DNA of 59,994 nt from an uncultured Clostridium sp. (GCA_948435735.1 CAOJGX010000001.1:1-59994), one strand, 5' to 3'; shown: positions 5,381-46,670, numbered from the stretch's first letter. Made by a program: numbers and translations. Notes: generated from the letters alone by a model not told the origin.

Positions 5381-5641
5381 TTATTTCTTGTAATGAGTTC
5401 TACATTGAGATATCTCAAGAACATCATTCTTTATTCTATATACAATTCTATTTTGGTCATCAATTCTTCTACTCCAGAAACCAGACAAATCATGTTTCAA
5501 AGGTTCTGGCTTCCCTAATCCTTCAAAAGGATTTCTTTCAATATCCTTAATCAAAAGATTAATTCTTTTCAAAGTTCTTTTATCCTGTGTTTGCCAATAA
5601 AGATAATCTTCCCAAGCCTCTTCATCCCAAATTTTTTGCAT
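5381..5641 (-). CDS. yoeB: Txe/YoeB family type II toxin
   Basis: 86 aa. WEDYLYWQTQDKRTLKRINLLIKDIERNPFEGLGKPEPLKHDLSGFWSRRIDDQNRIVY is a near-canonical YoeB sequence. Confidence 0.9.
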   Translation of the reverse strand: MQKIWDEEAWEDYLYWQTQDKRTLKRINLLIKDIERNPFEGLGKPEPLKHDLSGFWSRRIDDQNRIVYRIKNDVLEISQCRTHYKK

Positions 5642-5901
5642 TATTTCTCATCCTCAATTAACTCATGTTCAATCCCTTTACCCTCATCAAGATTTCTCAT
5701 TGCTCTTTTTAAATGTACAATGTTTTCTTCTGAATAAAAAGGGTCTGTTGTTATTTTAAATGGTATCTGTTTTTCTCTTACAACTGTCGATACAAATATA
5801 TTAATAGCAGTTGATATATTCATACCTGTCTCATTACAAAACTTCTCAAAGTCTTTTTTTAAATCCTCATCAATACGAACATTAATCGTAGTTTGTGCCA
5901 T
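5641..5901 (-). CDS. type II antitoxin, RelB/DinJ-type ribbon-helix-helix N-terminus
   Basis: Start moved to MAQTTINVRIDEDLKKDF (5901). Its stop TAA shares one base with the yoeB ATG (5641). Confidence 0.8.
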   Translation of the reverse strand: MAQTTINVRIDEDLKKDFEKFCNETGMNISTAINIFVSTVVREKQIPFKITTDPFYSEENIVHLKRAMRNLDEGKGIEHELIEDEK

Positions 5902-6010
5902 ATTTCTCAATCTCCTTTCAATATAGTATATACATTGTATCACAAAATATACACATTGTCAATACATCTTTCGGCACTATTTTTTGTTATAAAACACACC
6001 GGACTTCCTT

Positions 6011-6568
6011 TTATTTCAACAACTTCTCATTCAACTTTCGATAAATCCTCTCACACATCCATTTTTCCTCTGACATTTTCTCAACCTCTTCTATTTTCAC
6101 CCATTTTACGCCACTGTTTTCATCTTCTTTTATCCTCAAAACTTCATTTTCGGCCACTTCTAAAAGATAAGTGAAATTCAAATGCAGATGGGACGATACA
6201 TATTTTCCTTTTTTCACATGTCCATCTACTGTAAGAATTTCTAACGAAAAAAAAGCTGGTTTTACAATTTTCACATTTTCTACACCCGTTTCCTCTTTCA
6301 ATTCTCGCACTGCAACATTTAATAAATCACTTTCTCCATCCGCATGACCGCCAGACCATGCCCAAGATTGATAGATATTATGATAAATCATCAAAACTTT
6401 GGTTCGTTCTCGATTCACTGCCCAAGAAGATGCTGTGAAATGGCAACATTCGTTGTTTCTAGTTAGGACATCATCAAATGTATCAATATAATTTAGTATG
6501 GTTTGTTTGTCTTTTGCTTCTTGTTCATTAAACGGTTTATAATTTTGGATTTGTTGTTTAAAATTCAT
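6011..6568 (-). CDS. NUDIX hydrolase
   Basis: 185 aa. Nudix box GGHADGESDLLNVAVRELKEETGV. Confidence 0.9.
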   Translation of the reverse strand: MNFKQQIQNYKPFNEQEAKDKQTILNYIDTFDDVLTRNNECCHFTASSWAVNRERTKVLMIYHNIYQSWAWSGGHADGESDLLNVAVRELKEETGVENVKIVKPAFFSLEILTVDGHVKKGKYVSSHLHLNFTYLLEVAENEVLRIKEDENSGVKWVKIEEVEKMSEEKWMCERIYRKLNEKLLK

Positions 6569-6600
6569 AATTTGCTCCTCGCTTAAATTTTAACTAAATC

Positions 6601-6627
6601 GAACAATTAAGGATTCCTTAATTGTTC
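6601..6627. repeat. 27-bp perfect palindrome, copy 1 (gaacaattaaggattccttaattgttc)
   Basis: Perfect dyad. Lies 33 nt upstream (minus sense) of the NUDIX ATG and just after the ITPase stop. Confidence 0.9.
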
Positions 6628-6640
6628 AAATTATTTATCT

Positions 6641-7219
6641 TTAGATCTCTTCAGTTCCCTCAAACCACTCTGCAAATACTTTCAAAGCTTCTTGCGAGCC
6701 GTCAATTTTTCGTCTTTGTTCGCGTTCGGTCTCGTTCATTTGTGCCAAAGTTTTTTCAAAATGTTTTGGCTTAAAAACATACCACAAATCCGACCATTTC
6801 TCATGTCTGTCTTGCCCCTCAACTTCATAGGCTATTTCTCCCGGATGCCTTCCATAAAAATAACGAATCTCCTCCCCATCATAATACGCCAAAACTTCCT
6901 CAAATCGACAATCTCGATTTTCTTGATTTTCCATCAATTTCAAAATCCCATCAATACCAATGGTTTCTAATGCAAAATTCACAAATGTTTTGGGAAAACC
7001 GTTTAAGGCATCAATAAAAAATCCCGTATCCAATGCAATACATGGCTTTTTGACAAGGCTATACGCTTGTTTGACTTTGGCTGTTGCAATTTCTTTTAAA
7101 TCCTCGCTTCGTGGTTCATCGAGTTCAAAATCATAAGTGGTAAATTTAATATTTTTGAAATATTTTTCGGCTGATTTGGCTTTGCCTTTGTTGTGTGTTA
7201 CAAAAACAAGTTCTTTCAT
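6641..7219 (-). CDS. non-canonical purine NTP pyrophosphatase (Ham1/ITPase family)
   Basis: ORF 6641..7243, with start moved to MKELVFVTHNKGK (7219), which has SD aaaggag. FVTxNxGK plus the later family pattern. Confidence 0.7.
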   Translation of the reverse strand: MKELVFVTHNKGKAKSAEKYFKNIKFTTYDFELDEPRSEDLKEIATAKVKQAYSLVKKPCIALDTGFFIDALNGFPKTFVNFALETIGIDGILKLMENQENRDCRFEEVLAYYDGEEIRYFYGRHPGEIAYEVEGQDRHEKWSDLWYVFKPKHFEKTLAQMNETEREQRRKIDGSQEALKVFAEWFEGTEEI

Positions 7220-7249
7220 GGTTTGCTCCTTTTCAATTTCCACTAAATC

Positions 7250-7276
7250 GAACTATTAAGGATTCCTTAATAGTTC
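7250..7276. repeat. 27-bp perfect palindrome, copy 2 (gaactattaaggattccttaatagttc)
   Basis: Perfect dyad, 31 nt upstream of the ITPase start. Confidence 0.9.
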
Positions 7277-7309
7277 AATTTTCCCTTTATTTATAGGTAT
7301 TGTACGATA

Positions 7310-7648
7310 TTAAAAATTTTCTTCATCAATCAAAGGAACTATATCAATTGCAGGTTCTTCATAAGGATGAACTTCCCTTAATCTTTTTAACACTCTTTTT
7401 ACAATTTTAACATCACATCTTACTTCTAATTTTTCCTCTTCTACAAATTCTAATTTATTATTCTTACCAATATACGGATTGGCTTTATCAGAAGGTTTAA
7501 AAGTTCCTATACATTTAGTTGCTATCGTACAATACGTATAATTTCCTATAATTCCAGCACCTTCATTACAAATAGCCTCTCTTATTTCTTTACTATTTTC
7601 GATTGGCACAGTTACTATAATTTTTACTTTCTTAACATCAAACTTCAT
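7310..7648 (-). CDS. small PII-like protein resembling the NIF3/YqfO insert domain
   Basis: 112 aa. KIIVTVP...EAI...VHPYEEPAIDIVPL resembles the HPYEEPAYD motif of the NIF3 insert domain. Family call from memory only. Confidence 0.4.
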   Translation of the reverse strand: MKFDVKKVKIIVTVPIENSKEIREAICNEGAGIIGNYTYCTIATKCIGTFKPSDKANPYIGKNNKLEFVEEEKLEVRCDVKIVKRVLKRLREVHPYEEPAIDIVPLIDEENF

Positions 7649-7744
7649 ATTTTCTCCTTCCCTCCAAATTCTCTCTTTTCAATGGTAACTTGCATCTCAC
7701 AAATCTTCACTTCTTGTTCCTTGTTCAATTTTTACACTTAAATC

Positions 7745-7771
7745 GAACAATTAAGGATTCCTTAATCGTTC
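7745..7771. repeat. 27-bp palindrome, copy 3 (gaacaattaaggattccttaatcgttc, one arm mismatch)
   Basis: Same element, immediately downstream of the broken MNT gene. Confidence 0.85.
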
Positions 7772-7788
7772 ATTTTTTCCTTTAATCT

Positions 7789-8081
7789 CTATTCAGCACA
7801 ATATAATAAAACCTCTTCTAAATTTTCCCCTTCTAATAAAGAACCTTTTATACTATCTGTTGTTATAATATCTACTTGTTTTTCTAAAGCTTCTTCTAAT
7901 GCAAATTTAACCTCTACTATTTTAAATCCGCCCAATACGTCTTCTGTTCTACAATAATATCTATATCACTATCTTCTTTTTGTTTTTTCTTTGCATAGGA
8001 ACCAAATATCCAAACATATACCAAATGATACTTTTCAGCAACTGGTTTTATTTTTTCTTTTATTTTTTCTAATTCAGACAT
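7789..8081 (-). pseudogene. MNT-type nucleotidyltransferase (HEPN/MNT antitoxin-like), frameshifted
   Basis: Own translation from ATG 8081 gives MSELEKIKEKIKPVAEKYHLVYVWIFGSYAKKKQKEDSDIDIIVEQ..stop. It continues in another frame as EDVLGGFKIVEVKFALEEALEKQVDIITTDSIK...CAE. One nucleotide is missing near 7950. This is not a CGG site. Confidence 0.7.
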
Positions 8082-8122
8082 TATATCACCTCATCTAGTA
8101 TTTCTTTACAAAATTCTTTTAT

Positions 8123-8674
8123 TTATAGGTATTGTACAAGTTCTTCCAAAGTATCAAATCCACTTTCACTGTTGATGTGACCTGCATTGGGTAGAAACAC
8201 TTGCTCTGTGGCAATGGTATCTGCAAAGTCTTTTTCTGCTTCCTGTTTTACATAAGGATCATTGTCAGAATAAAAACAAATAATCTCATTGGCGTATCGT
8301 TTTACGTCTGCTAGCTTGTCAAAATACATAGATTGATTAACACTGTCGTATTCTTTATTAATGCCAAAATAATGATTAAATCCACATACAAAAATTAACT
8401 TTTTGACTTTGCATTTGTTCTCTGTCAAAAATTTCGCAATAAACACAGGTGCAATACTGTGACCTATGATTGTTGTCTGTTCATTGATTAAGCCTAAATC
8501 CACATAATATTTTAATAACTTGCTCCAATTTTCATAATTTTGCAAACCAACTCCAATGGGAAAATTCGGTACATAAACTTGTTTTCCTTCACCTTGAATA
8601 AAGTCATGTAACCATGGAAGCCAATTGGAGTATGGAGTGCTGAATGAGCCGTGAATGATAAAATAATTTTGCAT
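8123..8674 (-). CDS. alpha/beta hydrolase (YdeN/RBBP9-like serine hydrolase)
   Basis: 183 aa. FIIHGSFSTP, nucleophile elbow IIGHSIA, and a late D/H (SDNDPYV, NAGHIN). Confidence 0.7.
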   Translation of the reverse strand: MQNYFIIHGSFSTPYSNWLPWLHDFIQGEGKQVYVPNFPIGVGLQNYENWSKLLKYYVDLGLINEQTTIIGHSIAPVFIAKFLTENKCKVKKLIFVCGFNHYFGINKEYDSVNQSMYFDKLADVKRYANEIICFYSDNDPYVKQEAEKDFADTIATEQVFLPNAGHINSESGFDTLEELVQYL

Positions 8675-8684
8675 TTTTTCCTCC

Positions 8685-9437
8685 TTATAATTCTAAGATC
8701 ATATCATCTTCTGCCGAAATTACTTCTATGCCATACTTTTTGCTTAACTTCTCAGCAAGCATAATCGGATTACTATTTAATATATTACAATTAAAATGTG
8801 TTAAAATCACTTTTTTCGGTTCTATTGCTTTTATAAACTCTTCTGTTGCTGGTATATCAAGATGTTTTGGTTTTTGCTTATCTTGTATGTAATAGGGTAC
8901 ATTCATAATTAAAATTTCACAACCTTTATAGCTATCTAAAAGTTCTAGAAAATAGGCCGTATCCGTCACTAAACCTATCGTATGATATTTTGTTTTTATT
9001 TTAAATCCATAATTTTCTACACTGTGTTTATGTTCAATTGATGAAATAATTTCTACATTTTTTATCTGATAACTTGAATTTGCTTTTGTTATTTCTAAAT
9101 TCTCTGGAAAGTCCATTACATACGGGTATAATACTTTTTGTTCAATGGCTTGATTGGGTACAAGCAAAGTTCCATGTTTACATTCTCCTCCATCTGTCAT
9201 AAGTTCCACAAATATATTTAAATCATTCAAGTGATCTATATGAATATGCGATAAAATAATTCCGTCAAGTTTATTTTCATAAGTATGTAAATATTTATAA
9301 AATGTATTGATACCAGGATCGATTATTATGTTTGTATCATCCACACAAAAGTACAAACCACCTGCTGAACGTATTTTCTTAAAGAATATATCTTTGTTGC
9401 CTGTTGTTCCAAAAAAGTGAATAAAGTCTTTTCCCAT
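8685..9437 (-). CDS. MBL-fold metallo-hydrolase
   Basis: 250 aa. HxHxDH motif SHIHIDHLND. Confidence 0.8.
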   Translation of the reverse strand: MGKDFIHFFGTTGNKDIFFKKIRSAGGLYFCVDDTNIIIDPGINTFYKYLHTYENKLDGIILSHIHIDHLNDLNIFVELMTDGGECKHGTLLVPNQAIEQKVLYPYVMDFPENLEITKANSSYQIKNVEIISSIEHKHSVENYGFKIKTKYHTIGLVTDTAYFLELLDSYKGCEILIMNVPYYIQDKQKPKHLDIPATEEFIKAIEPKKVILTHFNCNILNSNPIMLAEKLSKKYGIEVISAEDDMILEL

Positions 9438-9453
9438 AAAAATCTCCTTTTTT

Positions 9454-9480
9454 GAACTATTAAGGATTCCTTAATAGTTC
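9454..9480. repeat. 27-bp perfect palindrome, copy 4 (gaactattaaggattccttaatagttc)
   Basis: Identical to copy 2. Lies 16 nt upstream of the MBL hydrolase ATG. Confidence 0.9.
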
Positions 9481-9516
9481 AATTTTCCCTTATTTATAAG
9501 CATTCTACAATATGTA

Positions 9517-9981
9517 CTACTCCACAAAAGACGTTACATGATATGACTTGAATCCTGCCTCTTCTGTTTGTCTAATCGTGGCATGTTTGTCATCAATAAA
9601 AACAATATCTTCCTTTGAAATATTTAACTTTTTAGCATATTGTTCTAAGGCAATTAGTTTCAAAGAAGAATCTGCTACAAAAATAATATTTTCTTTCTTG
9701 ATAGAAGGATAATATTTTGCAAACCATTCGTACTTTTCATCAATTTCATGGTTTGTTGTGATAACTCCTAACACAAAAATTTTGTTAGCATCTAACTTTT
9801 CGATTAAATGAACCATGGTTTTTAATGGGCGATTATTAACAAATACATTTCCAAAAAATAACTCTTCCCAAGTTTGTCCACCCCAGTCATTTGCACCACT
9901 CACATGATCATTATAACGATATTCTGCCAAGGTTCCATCTACATCAAAAAATACATATTTATCTTTTAATTTTTCCAACAT
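9517..9981 (-). CDS. HAD-superfamily hydrolase (nucleotidase-like)
   Basis: 154 aa. Motif I FFDVDGTLA and a late IDD motif. Confidence 0.6.
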   Translation of the reverse strand: MLEKLKDKYVFFDVDGTLAEYRYNDHVSGANDWGGQTWEELFFGNVFVNNRPLKTMVHLIEKLDANKIFVLGVITTNHEIDEKYEWFAKYYPSIKKENIIFVADSSLKLIALEQYAKKLNISKEDIVFIDDKHATIRQTEEAGFKSYHVTSFVE

Positions 9982-9982
9982 C

Positions 9983-10777
9983 TTACTTTTCCTCCAATAC
10001 TTTTTCTAACACTTTCGCAACGCCATCCTCTTCATTTGAAGTCGTGACAAAATCTGCAATTTGCTTTACCTCTTTGGTGGCATTTCCCATTGCTACACCA
10101 AATCCTGCCATTTTTATCATAGAAATATCATTGATTTTATCCCCAATTGCAACAGTTTGGCTTAAATCAATTCCTAGAAACTTACATAAACCCGCCATCG
10201 CATTTCCTTTTGAAATACCAGTATTGGTAATATGGATAGCCTGCATCACTTTGCCATTTACTTCCCAAATAAATTGATTAATCACCTCAAAAATTGTATT
10301 TTCCTTGATATATTTTTTAAGATTTTCTATTTTTTCTAAACTCTCATTACACACAGCAATTTGAATTACCTTATTATTTTTCAAAAAATCATCTATGTTT
10401 TCTGTCAACTCAATTTCATAACTTTCCAAATATGCTGGTTTATTGACAGCTCTTGCTAAACCAAAATCCAATTTTATGACCATATCTTCTTTTTGTGCCA
10501 TTTCATATAATTTCTTACAACTCTTAGGCTCCATCGCAGATTGATACAAAGTTTCTTTTTTCTCAGTATCATAAATATCAGCACCATTACAATTAACCAT
10601 ATATCTACTTGAAAATTCCTGAAATTTTATCGCAGACATTCGTGATCTACCAGAAATGAGCAAAACATGAATTCCTTTTTTTTGGGCACGTTCAATCGCA
10701 TTTGCTGTTGCTTGCGTAACTTCTCCATTGCCATCTAGCAAGGTTTTATCAATATCAATAAATACTGCTTTATACAT
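9983..10777 (-). CDS. Cof-type HAD-IIB sugar phosphatase
   Basis: 264 aa. VFIDIDKTLL, ISGRS and AIGDKINDISM motifs. Confidence 0.85.
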   Translation of the reverse strand: MYKAVFIDIDKTLLDGNGEVTQATANAIERAQKKGIHVLLISGRSRMSAIKFQEFSSRYMVNCNGADIYDTEKKETLYQSAMEPKSCKKLYEMAQKEDMVIKLDFGLARAVNKPAYLESYEIELTENIDDFLKNNKVIQIAVCNESLEKIENLKKYIKENTIFEVINQFIWEVNGKVMQAIHITNTGISKGNAMAGLCKFLGIDLSQTVAIGDKINDISMIKMAGFGVAMGNATKEVKQIADFVTTSNEEDGVAKVLEKVLEEK

Positions 10778-11945
10778 TTAGGCTCAAAATCTCCTCCGCC
10801 AATTCTTCCAACTTAATTCGTGATTCCTCATTTAAACGTGAACGAATCGTAACTTGCGTATCGCAAATCGTCATATTCTTCATTGTTTCAACAATGTCTC
10901 TCATACATTTTCCCGCCGTTGGTGCCCAGGTCCCATTCTCAATGATGGCAATTTTGCGATTTTGATAGTTTTTGCCTGACAAGTGATGCAAAAATTGCTC
11001 CATTGGTGGAAACACACCGAAATTATAACTAGAAGCTGCTAAAACCATTTTGTCATAACGAAACGCATCTTCAATTGCCTCTGCCATATCATCTCGTGCT
11101 AAGTCTGTTAAAACAACTTTTTTCGCACCTTTTGCTTCTAACATTTTAGCAAGTTCTCTTGCTGCATCTGCCGTATTTCCATGAATCGAAGCATACGCTA
11201 TCAGTACGCCATCATCTTCTGGCTGATAACTGCTCCAAATATCGTATTTTTTTATATAATGTTCCAAATTTTGTTTCAAAATCGGCCCATGCAGCGGACA
11301 AATCATATTTACTTCTAAACCTGCTAATTTTTTTAGCAAAGCTTGTACTTGCAAACCATATTTTCCAACAATGTTGAAATAATATCTTCTTGCCTCGCAG
11401 GCCCAAGGTTCTTCGGTATCTAAGGCTCCAAATTTTCCAAATGCATCTGCTGAAAATAAAATTTTCTCTGTCTTTTCATAGGTTACCATAACTTCTGGCC
11501 AATGTACCATTGGTGCCATGAAAAATTGTAACGTGTGTGTGCCAAGATTTAGTTCATCCCCTTCTTTTACTACTATTTTTCTTGTTTGTAAGTCTGGTAT
11601 GTCAAAAAATTGAGGCAAAAAGGCAAATGTTTTTTCATTTCCAATTAGTTTCATGGCTGGATATTTTTTGGCTAACAGTTCAATATTGTAAGCATGGTCT
11701 GGCTCCAAATGGGAAATGACTAAATAATCTGGTTTTTCGCTTGTTAAAGCTTTTTCTAGATTGGCAAGCCATTCGTCTGTTTTGCGTTTGTCGATGGTAT
11801 CCATAATAACATTTTTTTCATCTTTTATGAGATAGGAATTATAGGAAATTCCATTTGGTACTATGTATTGGCTTTCAAATAAATCAATGGTTTTATCGTC
11901 TGCTCCAATGTAGGTAATATCTTGTGAAATGATTGTGTCTTTCAT
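10770..11945 (-). CDS. flavodiiron protein (FprA-type, MBL-like plus flavodoxin domains)
   Basis: 391 aa. ISHLEPDHA di-iron motif. C-terminal flavodoxin-like LIAYASIHGNTA. Confidence 0.85.
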   Translation of the reverse strand: MKDTIISQDITYIGADDKTIDLFESQYIVPNGISYNSYLIKDEKNVIMDTIDKRKTDEWLANLEKALTSEKPDYLVISHLEPDHAYNIELLAKKYPAMKLIGNEKTFAFLPQFFDIPDLQTRKIVVKEGDELNLGTHTLQFFMAPMVHWPEVMVTYEKTEKILFSADAFGKFGALDTEEPWACEARRYYFNIVGKYGLQVQALLKKLAGLEVNMICPLHGPILKQNLEHYIKKYDIWSSYQPEDDGVLIAYASIHGNTADAARELAKMLEAKGAKKVVLTDLARDDMAEAIEDAFRYDKMVLAASSYNFGVFPPMEQFLHHLSGKNYQNRKIAIIENGTWAPTAGKCMRDIVETMKNMTICDTQVTIRSRLNEESRIKLEELAEEILSLNV

Positions 11946-11988
11946 ATTTGGGTTCCTTTCTTTACATTATTATAAATAGGATAAAGGA

Positions 11989-12012
11989 GTCGATGTGGGC
12001 ATCGACCCCTAC
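11989..12012 (-). repeat. GC-rich intercistronic hairpin repeat, copy B
   Basis: Minus strand gtaggggtcgatgcccacatcgac. The stem GTCGATG/CATCGAC sits between the rubredoxin stop and the flavodiiron SD. Confidence 0.7.
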
Positions 12013-12017
12013 GGTGG

Positions 12018-12155
12018 TTATTCTTCTACTTTTTCAAACATGTCTTTGCCAACACCACATAATGGGCATGTCCAATCATCTGGTAAATCTTCAAATTTTA
12101 CACCTTCGCTTTCTTCATCATAAATATAACCACAAATGGTACATTTGTATTTCAT
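12018..12155 (-). CDS. rubredoxin
   Basis: Not in the ORF track (45 aa). Own translation [45 protein letters not shown] has two CxxCG knuckles. SD aaaggagg. Confidence 0.9.
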
Positions 12156-12256: not shown

Positions 12257-12871
12257 CTAACTTATTTTCTCAAATTCTTCTTTTGTTAATCCTGTTATTT
12301 CTAGGATACTATCTATATCCATTCCTTTTTCTTTCATCTTTTTTGCAATTTTTATTTGTTCTTCTCTTTTTCCTTCTTTCCTACCTTCTTCCTGCCCCTC
12401 TTTTTTTCCTATTTCCCTGCCTTCTTTTCTTCCTTCAGCCAATCCATTCTCTTTCCAATATCTTTGGGCACTTATTTCATCTTTTTCCCATCTTTCTTTT
12501 AATTGAGCAATTCTTCTTAATTTTTTATCTTCACTAATCTCTTCTAGCTTCCACAAGGCGTCAGCTATGTCTTGGTTCTTTTTCTTCATTTCCAATACCC
12601 CCTTATTATTTGGATTGTCCAAAAAGGCTAACCATTGTAATAACTTATCATTTTCATCTTTATTTTCCTTTTTTCTCGCTTTTGGTAGACTTATTATATG
12701 AATTTCTAAATCTTCTGTCAATAGTTTTTCAAAATATTCTTCTTCCCTAATTTGCCATTTTGTATGGACTTTTTCAAGATCTTTGATAAAGTCTAATTCA
12801 TAATCTTTTCCTATTTTTAATTGCATACTATACATCATTCTTTGGTTTGAGTAGTTCCATCTTCTTTGCAT
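12257..12871 (-). pseudogene. Rpn-family recombination-promoting nuclease / putative transposase, 5'-truncated remnant
   Basis: 204 aa, matching only the C-terminal two thirds of the family (LEIHIISLPK..., KEGR/KEG repeats, IAKKMKEKGMDIDSILEITGLTKEEFEKI). The PD-(D/E)xK N-terminal part is missing. Confidence 0.6.
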
Positions 12872-16408: not shown

Positions 16409-16434
16409 GGGGTCAATGTGGGCATCGACCTGTA
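16409..16434 (-). repeat. GC-rich intercistronic hairpin repeat, copy C
   Basis: Minus strand tacaggtcgatgcccacattgacccc, between the response-regulator stop and the kinase SD. Confidence 0.65.
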
Positions 16435-16440
16435 TGATAA

Positions 16441-17136
16441 TTATATTTTTTCGATTTTGTACCCGATTCCCCAGATTACTTTGAGATATTTTGGGTCTTT
16501 GGGGTTGATTTCGATTTTTTCGCGAATGTGTCTGATATGTACTGCAATGATGTTTTCTGCACCATAAGCTTCTTCTTCCCAAACATTTTTGTAAATTTGT
16601 TCGATGGAATAAACTCGCCCTTTGTTTTGGATAAGAAATTTTAGAATGTTGTATTCGGTTGGTGTGAGTTTTATCTCTTGTTCATCTAGTGTGACTTTTT
16701 TTAAGGTGTCGTCTATCATTAAGCCACCTGTTTGGTAACAATTTTCGTTTTCTTCTTGGTTCATCATGCCAAGTTTGGTGTATCTTCGAATGGAAGAGTT
16801 GACACGTGCAATTAGTTCTAAAGGATTAAATGGTTTTGTGACATAATCGTCTGCGCCTAAGTTTAGACCACTGATTTTGTCTTCATCTTCTGATTTAGCG
16901 GATAACATGATGACTGGAATGGCTTGGGCTTCCCTAATTTTTTTTAAGGCTTGCATACCATCCATGTTTGGCATCATGATGTCTAATATAATTAAATGTA
17001 TGGTATTTTGCCTTAAGATTTCCAAACCTTGTTTTCCGTCATACGCTTTAAAAACATGGTAACCTTCTTGCTCTAAATAAATTTCAATTGCTCCTGCAAT
17101 TTCCTTGTCATCATCACAAACTAAAATATTGTACAT
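16441..17136 (-). CDS. OmpR-family response regulator
   Basis: 231 aa. Receiver DD..D (ILVCDDD, LIILDIMMP). Winged-helix C-terminus IWGIGYKI. Confidence 0.95.
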   Translation of the reverse strand: MYNILVCDDDKEIAGAIEIYLEQEGYHVFKAYDGKQGLEILRQNTIHLIILDIMMPNMDGMQALKKIREAQAIPVIMLSAKSEDEDKISGLNLGADDYVTKPFNPLELIARVNSSIRRYTKLGMMNQEENENCYQTGGLMIDDTLKKVTLDEQEIKLTPTEYNILKFLIQNKGRVYSIEQIYKNVWEEEAYGAENIIAVHIRHIREKIEINPKDPKYLKVIWGIGYKIEKI

Positions 17137-45791: not shown

Positions 45792-46670
45792 TTGGAAGTG
45801 ATATTTATAAAAAAAGAAGTTATAAAAATACAAATGAAAGTAAAAGATAATTTAGTAAATATTATGAAAGTTGAAAATACAGACTATATCTCATTAACTG
45901 ATTTAGCACGATATAAAAATCCCTTAACTCCTGGAGATGTTATCATAAAATGGATGAGCAATAAAAGTTCTTTTGATTTTTATTGTTTATGGGAAGAACT
46001 TTCAAATCCTAATTTTAAACTAGCGGAATCCCGCGAGTTTAAAACTGATTCTGCAACTCAATCATTCACAATGAGTCCATCTAGATGGATTAAAGAAACA
46101 AATGCTATTGGGTTTATTTCCAAAAGAGGAAAATATAATGGTGGAACTTTTGCACATCCAGATATTGCACTAGAATTTGCTTCTTGGATAGATACAGCTT
46201 TTAAATTACATCTCATAAAAGAATTTGAGCGACTAAAACAAAATGAGAGTTATCAAAATAAAATTAATTGGTCAATTAGACGAGAACTTGCAAAAACCAA
46301 TTACAAAATACATACGGCCAGCATAAAAGAGAATATCATCCCTGCACTTACAGAAAAACAAAAATTATATGCTTATGCAAATGAAGCAGATTTATTAAAT
46401 GTTGCATTGTTTGGAATGACAGCAAAAGAATGGAAAGCTAAAAATACTCATTTAGAAGGCAATATGAGAGATTATGCTAATATCCTTCAGTTAATCATTT
46501 TAAGTAATTTAGAAAATCTAAATGCTGAAATGATAGAACAAGGAATCGAACAAAAAGTTAGGCTTGATCAATTAAATGCAATCGCTAAAAAACAATATAC
46601 AATTTTACAAGATAACACCAATATTAAACAAATAGCAACCCTAGATGAAGAAAAAAATTTGAAAAAATAA
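45792..46670 (+). CDS. KilA-N domain-containing DNA-binding protein
   Basis: DYISLTDLARYKN...VIIKWMSNKSSFDFYCLWEELSNPNFK...GGTFAHPDIALEFASWIDTAFKLHLIKEFERLK. The true start is likely the ATG at 45834 or 45864. No SD is visible. Confidence 0.75.
   Translation: MEVIFIKKEVIKIQMKVKDNLVNIMKVENTDYISLTDLARYKNPLTPGDVIIKWMSNKSSFDFYCLWEELSNPNFKLAESREFKTDSATQSFTMSPSRWIKETNAIGFISKRGKYNGGTFAHPDIALEFASWIDTAFKLHLIKEFERLKQNESYQNKINWSIRRELAKTNYKIHTASIKENIIPALTEKQKLYAYANEADLLNVALFGMTAKEWKAKNTHLEGNMRDYANILQLIILSNLENLNAEMIEQGIEQKVRLDQLNAIAKKQYTILQDNTNIKQIATLDEEKNLKK

Follow-up and report, generated by a model that had tools for sequence, protein, structure and literature searches.

RhuM-type palindromes inserted between the genes of a small hydrolase operon in an uncultured Clostridium

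A perfect 27-bp palindrome is repeated four times between the small hydrolase genes of an uncultured Clostridium sp. (GCA_948435735.1, CAOJGX010000001.1:1-59994; the whole stretch of 59,994 nucleotides is referred to as the window). What are these palindromes, where did they come from and what might they do? To answer these questions, we examined the sites, compared the operon with its relatives and searched for the same sequence in other genomes. The same palindrome is a conserved site inside RhuM genes of many phyla, and the best reading, although tentative, is that it is an operator-like site for the predicted winged-helix DNA-binding domain of RhuM.

Four palindromes in intercistronic spacers

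The observation was confirmed. The palindrome GAAC-N-ATTAAGGATTCCTTAAT-N-GTTC occurs at 6601, 7250, 7745 and 9454, as the original prediction from the sequence had stated. A search for GAACWATTAAGGATTCCTTAATWGTTC with up to 3 mismatches found exactly these four sites, three without mismatch and one with a single mismatch (A..C on the plus strand, which is G.U on the minus, gene-sense strand), and none was found in 100 dinucleotide-preserving shuffles. A scan allowing 7 mismatches found no further credible copy in the whole window, so that the four copies cluster in 2.9 kb with none in the other 57 kb. The sites, spacers and genes are as follows (no strand is given for the palindromes themselves).

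6601-6627: dyad copy 1 (GAACAATTAAGGATTCCTTAATTGTTC), exact match, between Ham1/ITPase and NUDIX, 13 nt after the Ham1 stop codon and 32 nt before the NUDIX ATG
7250-7276: dyad copy 2 (GAACTATTAAGGATTCCTTAATAGTTC), between the 112-aa gene and Ham1/ITPase
7745-7771: dyad copy 3, one mismatch, between the nucleotidyltransferase and the 112-aa gene; other strains have A-T, G.T or G..G at the same pair
9454-9480: dyad copy 4, between the 154-aa HAD gene and the MBL-fold gene, followed directly by AAAAAAGGAG-N7-ATG; public assemblies break at this repeat
6569-6640, minus strand: whole intercistronic module 1, with an A-rich left flank, the dyad, GATTTAG, AAATTTAA and a Shine-Dalgarno sequence (SD)
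7223-7309, minus strand: intercistronic module 2, including a 19-nt remnant of the Ser_hydrolase 3' end (7287-7305; GTACAATACCTATAAATAA, identical to 8119-8137)
7649-7788, minus strand: intercistronic module 3
9438-9516, minus strand: intercistronic module 4, including a diverged Ser_hydrolase 3'-end-like remnant (9490-9508)
8119-8137, minus strand: true 3' end of the Ser_hydrolase gene, a direct repeat of 7287-7305; the two copies bracket the nucleotidyltransferase-dyad-112aa block
6011-6568, minus strand: NUDIX hydrolase gene (PF00293, E 2.6e-13), ancestral member of the operon, syntenic in relatives L173, L174 and L210
6641-7222, minus strand: Ham1/ITPase gene (PF01725, E 7e-28), ancestral member, with homologues at 80-86% identity in compact operons
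7310-7648, minus strand: 112-aa conserved protein without a Pfam family, at a different place in the operon of relative L210
7789-8081, minus strand: nucleotidyltransferase (Polbeta/NTP_transf_2) gene, frameshifted in the window, an intact 97 aa in other strains and absent from the operons of the relatives
8123-8674, minus strand: Ser_hydrolase gene (PF06821), ancestral member
8685-9437, minus strand: MBL-fold hydrolase gene, absent in several strains
9517-9981, minus strand: 154-aa HAD-like gene, with an internal deletion in several strains

All flanking genes are on the minus strand. The gap from the upstream stop codon to the palindrome is 13, 33, 17 and 36 nt, and the gap from the palindrome to the next start codon is 32, 27, 96 and 16 nt, which matches the 16-95 nt originally given. 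The minus-sense tail GATTTAG or GATTTAA follows three copies, as had been claimed, and the description of the genes as small hydrolases is correct (NUDIX, Ham1/ITPase, Ser_hydrolase, MBL fold and HAD), although a nucleotidyltransferase and the 112-aa protein are also present. The stem is indeed 12 bp with a 3-nt loop, and it extends to 14 bp with the flanking TT/GA or TT/AA. RNA folding of the spacers gives -14 to -24 kcal/mol (z -2.3 to -6.9). The claim that no U-run follows needs qualifying, because the sense tail is UUUAGUU and a loose consensus scan flags the sites as terminator-like, one on the sense strand and three on the antisense strand; none, however, has a canonical G+C-rich stem with a U-tract. 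That the motif is not a known one holds as far as could be tested: no family of Rfam (release 15) reached its gathering threshold in the window or at the dyad of 12 rhuM and metagenome-assembled genome (MAG) loci, the best sub-threshold hit being caiA at 31.4 against 55.5 bits, and no paper that could be searched contains the sequence.

The palindromes are secondary insertions in a compact operon

The orthologous operons of relatives L173 and L174 have 0-14 nt junctions and no dyads, and in both Ham1 and NUDIX abut or overlap, so about 72 nt are inserted at module 1. The copies in the window are thus secondary insertions in an originally compact operon. The right flank of module 1 is homologous to that of module 2 up to the ATG. 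Relative L210 carries decayed copies, including one at its SerHyd|Ham1 junction that is homologous to copy 2. Three of the four copies directly follow genes that relatives lack, namely the 154-aa HAD gene, the nucleotidyltransferase and the relocated 112-aa gene.

The same dyad lies inside rhuM genes of many phyla

The core 25-mer is not specific to this lineage. It recurs in 78 loci of the species-representative genomes, and most of these lie in frame inside RhuM genes (PF13310, E 5e-108; PADLOC PDC-S05) from Planctomycetota, Verrucomicrobiota, Bacteroidota, Bdellovibrionales and Cupriavidus, among others. Hits in PLSDB are annotated "virulence RhuM family protein". We define here a RhuM-embedded dyad family, a 25-29 bp perfect dyad with outer AACTRT/AYAGTT (or AGTTGT/ACAACT), a central AAT/ATT and purine-rich inner 5' arms. 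The window cores AACTATTAAGGAWTCCTTAATAGTT and AACAATT..AATTGTT are identical, or differ at one base pair, to the dyad in rhuM genes such as those at loci L013, L011 and L024. In contrast to the copies in rhuM genes, the window copies are intergenic, and no rhuM gene and no rhuM-related winged-helix gene lies in the 60-kb window; they are dispersed derivatives, like those in MAG CANSTR01 and in relatives L206 and L295.

The dyad in rhuM genes is selected, being kept by massive covariation. In RhuM genes collected by amino-acid patterns, a 10-14 bp perfect dyad sits at one fixed place. Among 47 distinct sequences, which show an 11-13 bp dyad at one fixed codon position, every one of 13 pairs shows double changes, and the covariation score is 0.685 against 0.27 in shuffles (0 of 500 reach it) and 0.05-0.19 in slid controls. 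Covariation extends to synonymous sites, as GTT..TTA and GTC..TTG encode the same TVKESLTV, and AT-rich codons are kept in genes with GC3 up to 0.81. In 54 distinct cores, 507 of 540 pairs are Watson-Crick, and the rest are 12 G.U, 10 A.C and 11 other mismatches. This lack of G.U bias indicates that in rhuM genes the dyad acts at the DNA level rather than as sense RNA.

The dyad class is associated with the predicted recognition helix

The AlphaFold model of the N-terminal part of RhuM (mean pLDDT 78) is a winged helix, with weak fold matches to DdrC, TFE and RTP, and the dyad encodes strand 70-79 of the wing. The six alignment columns that best predict the dyad class all lie in or just before the predicted recognition helix (normalised mutual information of 0.98, 0.96, 0.93, 0.90, 0.90 and 0.85 for positions -19, -20, -23, -24, -22 and -26 from the central codon of the dyad, in 74 sequences). 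The same helix motif goes with the same inner arm across different outer-arm and C-terminal subfamilies, for example KS[TG]ISRH with TTGCAA. Among genes that encode the same inner peptide VK[ED]SL, the synonymous T or C at dyad position 7 tracks helix residue -23 perfectly, 16 against 6 (P = 1.3e-5, Fisher's exact test, not corrected for phylogeny), although the T-class sequences were found through the DNA pattern itself. The helix-dyad association as a whole is likewise uncorrected for phylogeny, and part of it could reflect packing of the wing strand, which the dyad encodes, against the helix.

Relatives of this organism carry RhuM genes truncated after the N-terminal domain, at two different points, with dN/dS of 0.10-0.21 over the N-terminal domain, which indicates purifying selection, together with dispersed dyads of the matching variant. 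In L295 such a gene holds a perfect GAACGATTAAGGAATCCTTAATCGTTC and lies among small enzyme genes separated by the same dyad. In L206 all four dyads of that form, the one inside rhuM included, carry the compensated variant TTAAAGATTCTTTAA, and a fifth after sufD has the same arms around a different centre. Both rhuM genes of MAG CANSTR01 have a dyad 28-38 nt upstream of their start; however, the only intact rhuM in this MAG has a different dyad class from the dispersed copies.

A possible operator for a RhuM-derived winged-helix dimer

The comparisons establish that the four sites are copies of a 27-bp perfect dyad belonging to a cross-phylum family (AACTRT..inner arm..AAT..inner arm..AYAGTT), whose archetype sits in frame inside RhuM/PDC-S05 genes in the codons for the first strand of the predicted beta-hairpin wing, and that in this lineage the dyad has been copied, together with 15-30 nt of flank, into the spacers of the hydrolase operon. 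How the sites work, including their binding by any protein, is inferred from sequence alone. In the reading that we favor, tentatively and at somewhat less than even odds, each dyad would be an operator-like double-stranded DNA site for a dimer of a RhuM-type winged-helix protein. The two recognition helices would read the inner half-sites ATTAAGG and CCTTAAT, whose centres lie 10 bp apart, about one helical turn as for operators of dimeric helix-turn-helix regulators, and the wings would touch the outer GAAC and GTTC. The candidate binding protein is a RhuM N-terminal domain without the C-terminal RhuM domain, with helix motif ..ANINIH.., of the kind that relatives keep under purifying selection; it is not encoded in the window. 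Bound between cistrons, it would act as a roadblock or occupancy site that tunes read-through into the downstream hydrolase genes, while the same sequence inevitably also folds as a hairpin in the mRNA. Against this reading, no rhuM or rhuM-related winged-helix gene lies in the window, and the sites lie between cistrons with no strong promoter-like site adjoining them, which is unusual for an operator.

The original prediction had offered a repeated operator for a dimeric regulator, an RNA processing or stability hairpin, or a REP or cassette-boundary element, and this interpretation is partly supported. The operator is now the best supported of the three, in the unexpected form of a dyad that RhuM genes carry inside their own coding sequence; the hairpin remains a live rival; and the third candidate is right in that the copies are secondary insertions accompanying newly acquired genes, but it is contradicted by the breakpoints and defining features described below.

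A broader reading is not excluded but is rather unlikely. RhuM/PDC-S05 anti-phage proteins may be sequence-specific DNA binders whose cognate operator is written into the codons of their own winged-helix wing, so that protein and site would co-diversify as a self-referential pair. In a clade of mouse-gut Clostridia, the effector domain would have been lost and the DNA-binding domain kept and domesticated, and its site would then have been copied between the genes of operons of small hydrolase genes (NUDIX, ITPase, HAD, MBL), creating a new regulon. The same dyad sits in inter-domain linkers of unrelated phage proteins, which in this view suggests that it is also what RhuM recognises, or is titrated by, on invading DNA.

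Alternative explanations

The main rival, possible but less likely, is an intercistronic RNA stem-loop. In the polycistronic mRNA each copy would fold into a 12-14 bp hairpin placed after the upstream stop codon and before a conserved GAUUUAG-AAAUUUAA-SD leader, and it would protect upstream 3' ends, terminate weakly or uncouple translation, and so set different levels for the cistrons. All copies lie in transcribed spacers, the predicted stems are stable, the downstream leader is conserved across copies and species, and the sense tail is flagged as terminator-like. The architecture also resembles, though only weakly, that of the caiA motif. Moreover, the decayed copies in a relative change through sense-strand G.U pairs, and in the operon lineage the intergenic copies depart from perfect pairing mainly by sense-strand G.U (8 against 1 A.C), which favors an RNA constraint there. 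However, in rhuM genes the same dyad shows no G.U preference, intergenic copies occur in both orientations relative to transcription in MAG CANSTR01, and a plain structural hairpin explains neither the exact sequence identity across phyla nor the link to the recognition helix.

A selfish dispersed palindromic repeat (REP-, MITE- or SPRITE-like) is unlikely. Such a repeat would spread by an unknown trans-acting enzyme or by gene conversion without host function, and its identity with the rhuM dyad would reflect origin from, or conversion with, a resident rhuM copy. The copies are indeed secondary insertions absent from relatives, the repeat is multi-copy and breaks assemblies, it also sits next to core genes in the MAG (pgk, greA, sufB, mutL|miaA and ftsK), its variant is uniform within a genome, which points to concerted evolution, and copies decay in L210. 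On the other hand, no transposase, RAYT or integrase was found next to any copy examined, the four copies are clustered, the dyads stay perfect, with compensated changes, across strains of this species, and 27-60 nt is below the size of known MITEs. As to REP elements proper, the flanks are A/T-rich with a CGATTT tail, and the conserved 5' GTAG/GTGG tetranucleotide next to an imperfect palindrome is absent.

It is also unlikely that the dyad is a recombination joint or cassette boundary, that is, a crossover site or short universal homology at which gene or domain modules are exchanged. In favor, besides the genes that relatives lack, a Bro-N plus truncated-rhuM block inserted in the suf operon of L206 is flanked by dyads, and in L171 a rhuM gene is truncated exactly at the dyad. 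In viral contigs the 25-mer lies in inter-domain linkers, and L183 and L185/L192 share a C-terminal domain but have different N-terminal domains, with the join at the dyad. Only one reading frame is open, and it reads the same peptide on both strands. However, strain-level losses of the MBL gene and the 154-aa HAD gene are internal deletions that leave the gene ends in place rather than excisions at the dyads, and the nucleotidyltransferase-dyad-112aa block is bracketed by the 19-nt Ser_hydrolase repeat rather than by a crossover inside a dyad. No recombinase is nearby, and an odd 3-bp centre does not fit serine invertase sites.

Ordinary intrinsic terminators are very unlikely, despite the loose scan, because the stems are A+U-rich with 4 G-C pairs of 12, the sense tail is GAUUUAGUU with only 3 U rather than a U-tract of about 6-8 nt, and the sites sit inside a tightly linked operon; integron attC sites are equally unlikely, and a CRISPR array is rejected because the spacings are 649, 495 and 1709 nt and contain genes, in place of a regular period with spacers of about 30-40 nt.

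Comparison with known systems

One of the closest parallels is with the phage lambda ori iterons inside gene O and its lambdoid relatives, where a dyad-symmetric binding site for the N-terminal DNA-binding domain of a protein lies inside the coding sequence of that protein, so that the local amino-acid sequence is dictated by the DNA site and site and domain differ together between relatives. RhuM differs in having one dyad instead of four iterons plus an A+T-rich region, in that its dyad encodes a structured wing strand (in the model) instead of a linker, in being a defence candidate and not a replication initiator, and in that its binding is only inferred; here the site is also dispersed to other loci. 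In ParB/parS, a short palindrome conserved at nucleotide level likewise lies inside the gene of its binding protein (spo0J/parB), with further chromosomal copies in both coding and intergenic DNA. However, parS is nearly invariant across bacteria, whereas the inner arms of the RhuM dyad diversify together with the helix, and there is no origin-proximal clustering and no ParA/ParB genes here.

REP elements with their RAYT transposases are short, multi-copy intergenic palindromes, often inside operons, with a family-specific sequence tied to one resident gene, different between lineages and homogeneous within a genome. In the present case no HUH/Y1 transposase was found next to the copies examined, the 5' tetranucleotide is lacking, the associated gene carries the palindrome internally rather than being flanked by it, and copy number appears low and clustered. 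Integron gene cassettes share the layout of a co-directional string of small genes, each followed by an inverted repeat whose arms end in AAC and GTT (recalling the attC R boxes), with gene content varying between relatives. However, the sites are 27 nt (38 nt with the conserved flanks) rather than 57-141 nt with R''-L''...L'-R' boxes, their flanks (TTTGAAC / GTTCGAT) do not match RYYYAAC / GTTRRRY, and their 12-14 bp stems have no extrahelical bases or unpaired central spacer. No intI or other tyrosine recombinase was seen among the ORFs of the window, judged by reading the translations plus partial Pfam scans, and both orientations occur in the MAG.

In pdif (Xer) modules of Acinetobacter plasmids, small gene modules are also separated by repeated palindromic sites of about 28 bp. 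The pdif sites are 11+6+11 with distinct XerC and XerD arms and alternate in orientation, whereas the sequence here is unrelated and has a 3-bp (or 7-bp) centre, and no evidence of module exchange at the sites was found. Finally, the caiA RNA motif (RF02934) is a hairpin followed by about 30 nt of spacer, an SD and a start codon, but its sub-threshold score shows that the sites are not members; SPRITE and BOX are dispersed terminator-like hairpin repeats of low-G+C Gram-positives (Firmicutes) and have no link to a protein-coding dyad.

Distribution of the dyad in the window

The pattern GAACWATTAAGGATTCCTTAATWGTTC has exactly four sites in the window, at 6601, 7250 and 9454 (perfect) and at 7745 (one mismatch), whereas none occurs in 100 shuffles. 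A scan allowing seven mismatches found no further copy in the other 57 kb. The original prediction, in which four copies of a palindrome were described between small hydrolase genes, is thus confirmed as an observation. All neighboring genes are on the minus strand, and in transcription order they are as follows.

10770-11945, minus strand, FprA-type flavodiiron protein
9983-10777, minus strand, Cof-type HAD
9517-9981, minus strand, 154-aa HAD-like gene
9454, dyad
8685-9437, minus strand, MBL fold
8123-8674, minus strand, Ser_hydrolase
7789-8081, minus strand, frameshifted nucleotidyltransferase
7745, dyad
7310-7648, minus strand, 112-aa protein
7250, dyad
6641-7222, minus strand, Ham1/ITPase
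6601, dyad
6011-6568, minus strand, NUDIX
5381-5943, YefM/RelB-YoeB toxin-antitoxin pair, followed by Fe-alcohol dehydrogenase (Fe-ADH)

The dyads lie 13-36 nt after the upstream stop codon and 16-96 nt before the next start, and three copies carry the GATTTAG or GATTTAA tail. As RNA, the spacers fold at -14 to -24 kcal/mol. A loose scan calls the hairpins terminator-like, but the stems are A+U-rich and the sense tail is only UUUAGUU. A second, unrelated hairpin repeat, which is G+C-rich (GGRGTCRATGTGGGCATCGACC), is also found in intergenic DNA at 11986-12034, in the rubredoxin|FprA spacer, and at 16409-16457, in the response-regulator|histidine-kinase spacer. In addition, an exact 53-nt direct repeat with a 60-nt period (59882-59934 and 59942-59994) runs into the end of the window upstream of mfd.

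The nucleotidyltransferase gene is split by a frameshift near 7935-7950, whereas other strains have an intact 97-aa gene and one run shows an extra T at 7949; this is either a strain-specific pseudogene or a homopolymer sequencing error. Similarly, the transcription-repair coupling factor gene mfd (56335-59792) is broken into three ORFs, which could be due to assembly error or decay. A KilA-N domain protein (45792-46670) stands alone on the plus strand between the P-type ATPase gene and core genes.

Secondary insertion of the copies

To explore how the copies came to lie in this operon, we compared it with those of relatives in which homologs of the Ham1 protein show 80-85% identity. The order in relative L174 is FprA-HAD-ACT-Ser_hydrolase-Ham1-NUDIX and that in relative L173 is Ser_hydrolase-Ham1-NUDIX-FeADH; their junctions are 0-14 nt or overlapping, and both lack dyads. 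In the window, the Ham1|NUDIX junction has gained about 72 nt, and the Ser_hydrolase|Ham1 junction has gained two genes and two dyads. A third relative, L210, bears the module at FprA|112aa, 112aa|cupin, Ser_hydrolase|Ham1 and Ham1|NUDIX, but the copies are decayed. The unit that is copied is longer than the dyad and consists of an A-rich left flank, the dyad, GATTTAG, AAATTTAA and the SD (Shine-Dalgarno sequence), and the right flanks of copies 6601 and 7250 are homologous up to the ATG. The YefM/RelB-YoeB pair, which has its own near-consensus promoter (TTGACA-17-TACAAT, 5962-5934), is also an insertion between NUDIX and Fe-ADH when compared with L173 and L210. In L178/L179, relatives at 73% Ham1 identity, a long co-directional string holds three NUDIX genes, Ser_hydrolase, an MBL protein that hits the anti-Pycsar Apyc1 family, Ham1 and a YfbR-like HD protein. 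The recurring gene set suggests a conserved nucleotide house-cleaning or signal-degrading operon in these Clostridia.

Other strains of this mouse-gut species keep all the dyads but vary at pair 5/23, where A-T, T-A, G-C, G.T, A.C and G..G are all seen. They also vary in gene content: the MBL gene and most of the 154-aa HAD gene are missing in several strains, by internal deletions that leave the gene ends in place. This argues against recent cassette excision at the dyads. Moreover, a 19-nt piece of the Ser_hydrolase 3' end (8119-8137) is repeated at 7287-7305, with a diverged copy at 9490-9508, so that the nucleotidyltransferase-112aa block is bracketed by a gene-end repeat and not by a crossover inside a dyad. 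Just upstream of the rubredoxin-FprA-hydrolase operon lies a truncated PD-(D/E)XK Rpn/transposase_31-type gene (12257-12871), which in other strains is longer and carries an HTH_Rpn_C domain. Rpn proteins promote RecA-independent recombination, which may bear on the rearrangements seen here. One of the strain variants lacking the MBL gene came from RNA-labeled runs that contain the locus; because these runs are represented only by contigs with flat depth, they show no transcript ends.

The same dyad in other genomes

Scanning one genome per species for AACNNTTAAGGANTCCTTAANNGTT gave 78 loci, which fall into three groups. In low-G+C Clostridia MAGs, the copies are intergenic and multi-copy. Some form gene-dyad-gene arrays, such as locus L026 with four copies around Ser_hydrolase, MBL and an unassigned 450-aa gene, whereas others sit next to core genes (pgk, greA, sufB, mutL|miaA, ftsK), and they occur in both orientations relative to transcription. 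In nearly all other phyla, the 25-mer lies in frame in a gene reading ..NIFxEGELxxxA-T[VI]K[ED]SL[TI]V-QxEGxRxVxR..YNLD, which is RhuM (PF13310, E 5e-108), in agreement with the annotation in PLSDB. There, the flanking codons follow the host G+C, up to 0.66, while the 25-mer stays A+T-rich. A few further hits lie between type I restriction-modification genes, Fic genes or HEPN genes, often as two or three different dyad classes side by side, or directly upstream of an SD and start codon. In L057 (4729-4790), L008, L025, L187 and L027, two or three dyads of different classes stand 20-50 nt apart in intergenic DNA near phage methylase, HEPN or hsdM genes, one example pairing TTAAGGATTCCTTAA with CCGGAAATTCCGG. 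A scan of JGI metagenomes with the 27-mer gave only 10 hits, mostly rhuM, and one rhuM dyad class searched in E. coli genomes gave no match.

In viral and genome contigs (L183, L185, L192, L188, L190, L193-L195, L052 and L059), the 25-mer lies in frame, as T[VI]K[ED]SL[TI]V, in P/E/A-rich inter-domain linkers of unrelated phage proteins. L183 and L185/L192 share a C-terminal domain but have different N-terminal domains, and the join is at the dyad. In L171 (3590-3814), a Bacteroidota-like contig, a rhuM gene is truncated exactly at its dyad and followed by unrelated DNA (a DinB-family gene).

Selection on the rhuM dyad

RhuM genes collected through amino-acid patterns carry a 10-14 bp perfect dyad with a 3-5 nt center at one fixed place, and no other recurrent hairpin occurs in those loci. 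The peptide slot takes the forms TVKESLTV, VVKESLTT, TIRKFRIV, TVAKFATV, VVANFATT, TCKNYLQV, TTEESSVV, TISKMETV and others, every one of which is a palindrome at the DNA level. On an ungapped alignment of 47 distinct sequences, all 13 pairs show double changes; for example, columns 14-24 read AU 18, GC 14, CG 11 and UA 3. The covariation score is 0.685, against 0.27 in shuffles (0 of 500 reach it) and 0.05-0.19 when the partners are slid. The same peptide TVKESLTV is encoded by GTT..TTA or by GTC..TTG, so synonymous sites covary too. Among 54 distinct cores, 507 of 540 pairs are Watson-Crick, whereas the rest are 12 G.U, 10 A.C and 11 other mismatches, which is roughly the ratio we would expect from mutation alone, with no wobble preference. 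The constraint is therefore symmetric between the strands, as expected for a double-stranded dyad, and not what a sense-RNA hairpin would give. Only one reading frame is open on either strand, and it reads the same peptide both ways, the center A or T giving E or D.

No Rfam family reached its gathering threshold in the window or at the dyad of 12 related loci, and an E-value scan gave only a weak caiA resemblance. A text search for six dyad sequences found no paper among those searchable. Integron attC, REP/RAYT, CRISPR and a classical terminator were each tested against their defining features and rejected, with no RAYT gene found next to any copy examined. A role in SD/anti-SD pairing for AAGGA/UCCUU was also considered but dropped because other dyad classes lack it, and a promoter role for the TTGACA inside some classes was dropped because it is not general.

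Association with the predicted winged-helix domain

RhuM equals PADLOC candidate PDC-S05, one of the most widespread single-gene defense candidates, which was recently reported to protect E. coli against T4, T5 and T7 (bioRxiv 10.1101/2024.09.26.614923). In the material that could be searched, we found no mechanism for it and no mention of the dyad. An AlphaFold model of the first 164 residues (mean pLDDT 78) shows three strands, two helices and a beta-hairpin, which is a winged helix, and the dyad encodes the first predicted wing strand (residues 70-79). The fold matches are weak (DdrC, TFE and RTP, best E 0.06).

To explore whether the protein and the dyad vary together, we computed the mutual information between each protein column and the inner-arm class in 74 sequences not ascertained through the DNA pattern. 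The top six columns all lie in or just before the predicted recognition helix, with normalized values of 0.98, 0.96, 0.93, 0.90, 0.90 and 0.85, against 0.81 or less elsewhere. The mapping is regular and holds across different outer-arm and C-terminal subfamilies.

Helix motif and inner arm of the dyad in RhuM genes
..SRH goes with TTGCAA
..EH goes with YCGGA
..AISKH goes with TTTCCA
..N[IV]S[ILM]H goes with GT[TC]AAGG
..N[IV]N[IM]H goes with ATTAAGG

Among genes encoding the same VK[ED]SL, the synonymous T or C at dyad position 7 tracks helix residue -23 (Q against H, N or P) without exception (16 against 6; P = 1.3e-5, Fisher's exact test). It should be noted that these statistics are not corrected for phylogeny, that the T class was found through the DNA pattern itself, and that part of the signal could be packing between the helix and the wing strand. 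The geometry fits a helix-turn-helix dimer: the inner half-sites are centered 10 bp apart, and the conserved outer four base pairs lie where wings would reach.

Truncated rhuM genes in the lineage of the window

The closest relatives of the rhuM in MAG CANSTR01 are all truncated after the N-terminal domain (94-159 aa). The truncation points differ, yet dN/dS over the 86 shared codons is 0.10-0.21, so the predicted DNA-binding domain alone has been kept under selection. Such proteins in L206 and L295, which are of the ANINIH type, are 94-116 aa long. In the contig L295 (G+C 0.29), such a gene contains a perfect GAACGATTAAGGAATCCTTAATCGTTC and sits among acetyltransferase and cupin genes separated by the same dyad, and the contig ends in dyads at both sides. 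In the relative L206, a Bro-N plus truncated-rhuM block inserted in the suf operon is flanked by dyads; all four dyads of the form TTAAAGATTCTTTAA, the one inside rhuM included, share that compensated variant, and a fifth dyad after sufD has the same arms around a different center. Both rhuM genes of MAG CANSTR01 have a dyad 28-38 nt upstream of their start. The intergenic copies also keep rhuM-like flanks (AAATCGAAC..GTTCAAAA, reading NRTIK[ED]SLIVQK).

Interpretation

The analysis establishes that the four sites are real, that they are secondary insertions, that they belong to a cross-phylum dyad family whose archetype is inside rhuM, and that this archetypal dyad is under strong, strand-symmetric selection. 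What remains inferred is that the dyad is the DNA site of the RhuM winged-helix dimer, binding included, and that the window copies are operator-like sites for a domesticated RhuM-N protein that would be encoded elsewhere in the genome. We prefer this reading over the others, but only tentatively. The interpretation offered in the original prediction (a repeated operator for a dimeric regulator, an RNA processing or stability hairpin, or a REP/cassette-boundary element) is supported in part, the operator being the best supported of the three.

The main rival, which we regard as less likely, is that in this operon the module works as an RNA hairpin. It is supported by the sense-strand G.U bias of the intergenic copies (8 against 1), the conserved leader and the intercistronic position, and the two readings are not exclusive. 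If the RNA-hairpin reading is right instead, the element is a more ordinary intercistronic punctuation module. A function-less selfish repeat is unlikely, and a recombination joint is slightly more doubtful still. Terminator and attC readings are essentially excluded.

A dyad kept by covariation at one fixed place in the gene, strong enough to override amino-acid and codon preferences, and tracking the predicted recognition helix, gives a concrete and testable handle on what RhuM binds. For this window, it turns an unexplained repeat into a specific hypothesis, namely a domesticated defense-protein DNA-binding domain controlling an operon of nucleotide-cleaning hydrolase genes, and it also gives a clean example of short regulatory or structural modules being inserted into previously overlapping gene junctions. 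The inferred arrangement, in which the DNA site of the RhuM winged-helix dimer lies inside rhuM, parallels lambda ori within gene O and parS within parB.
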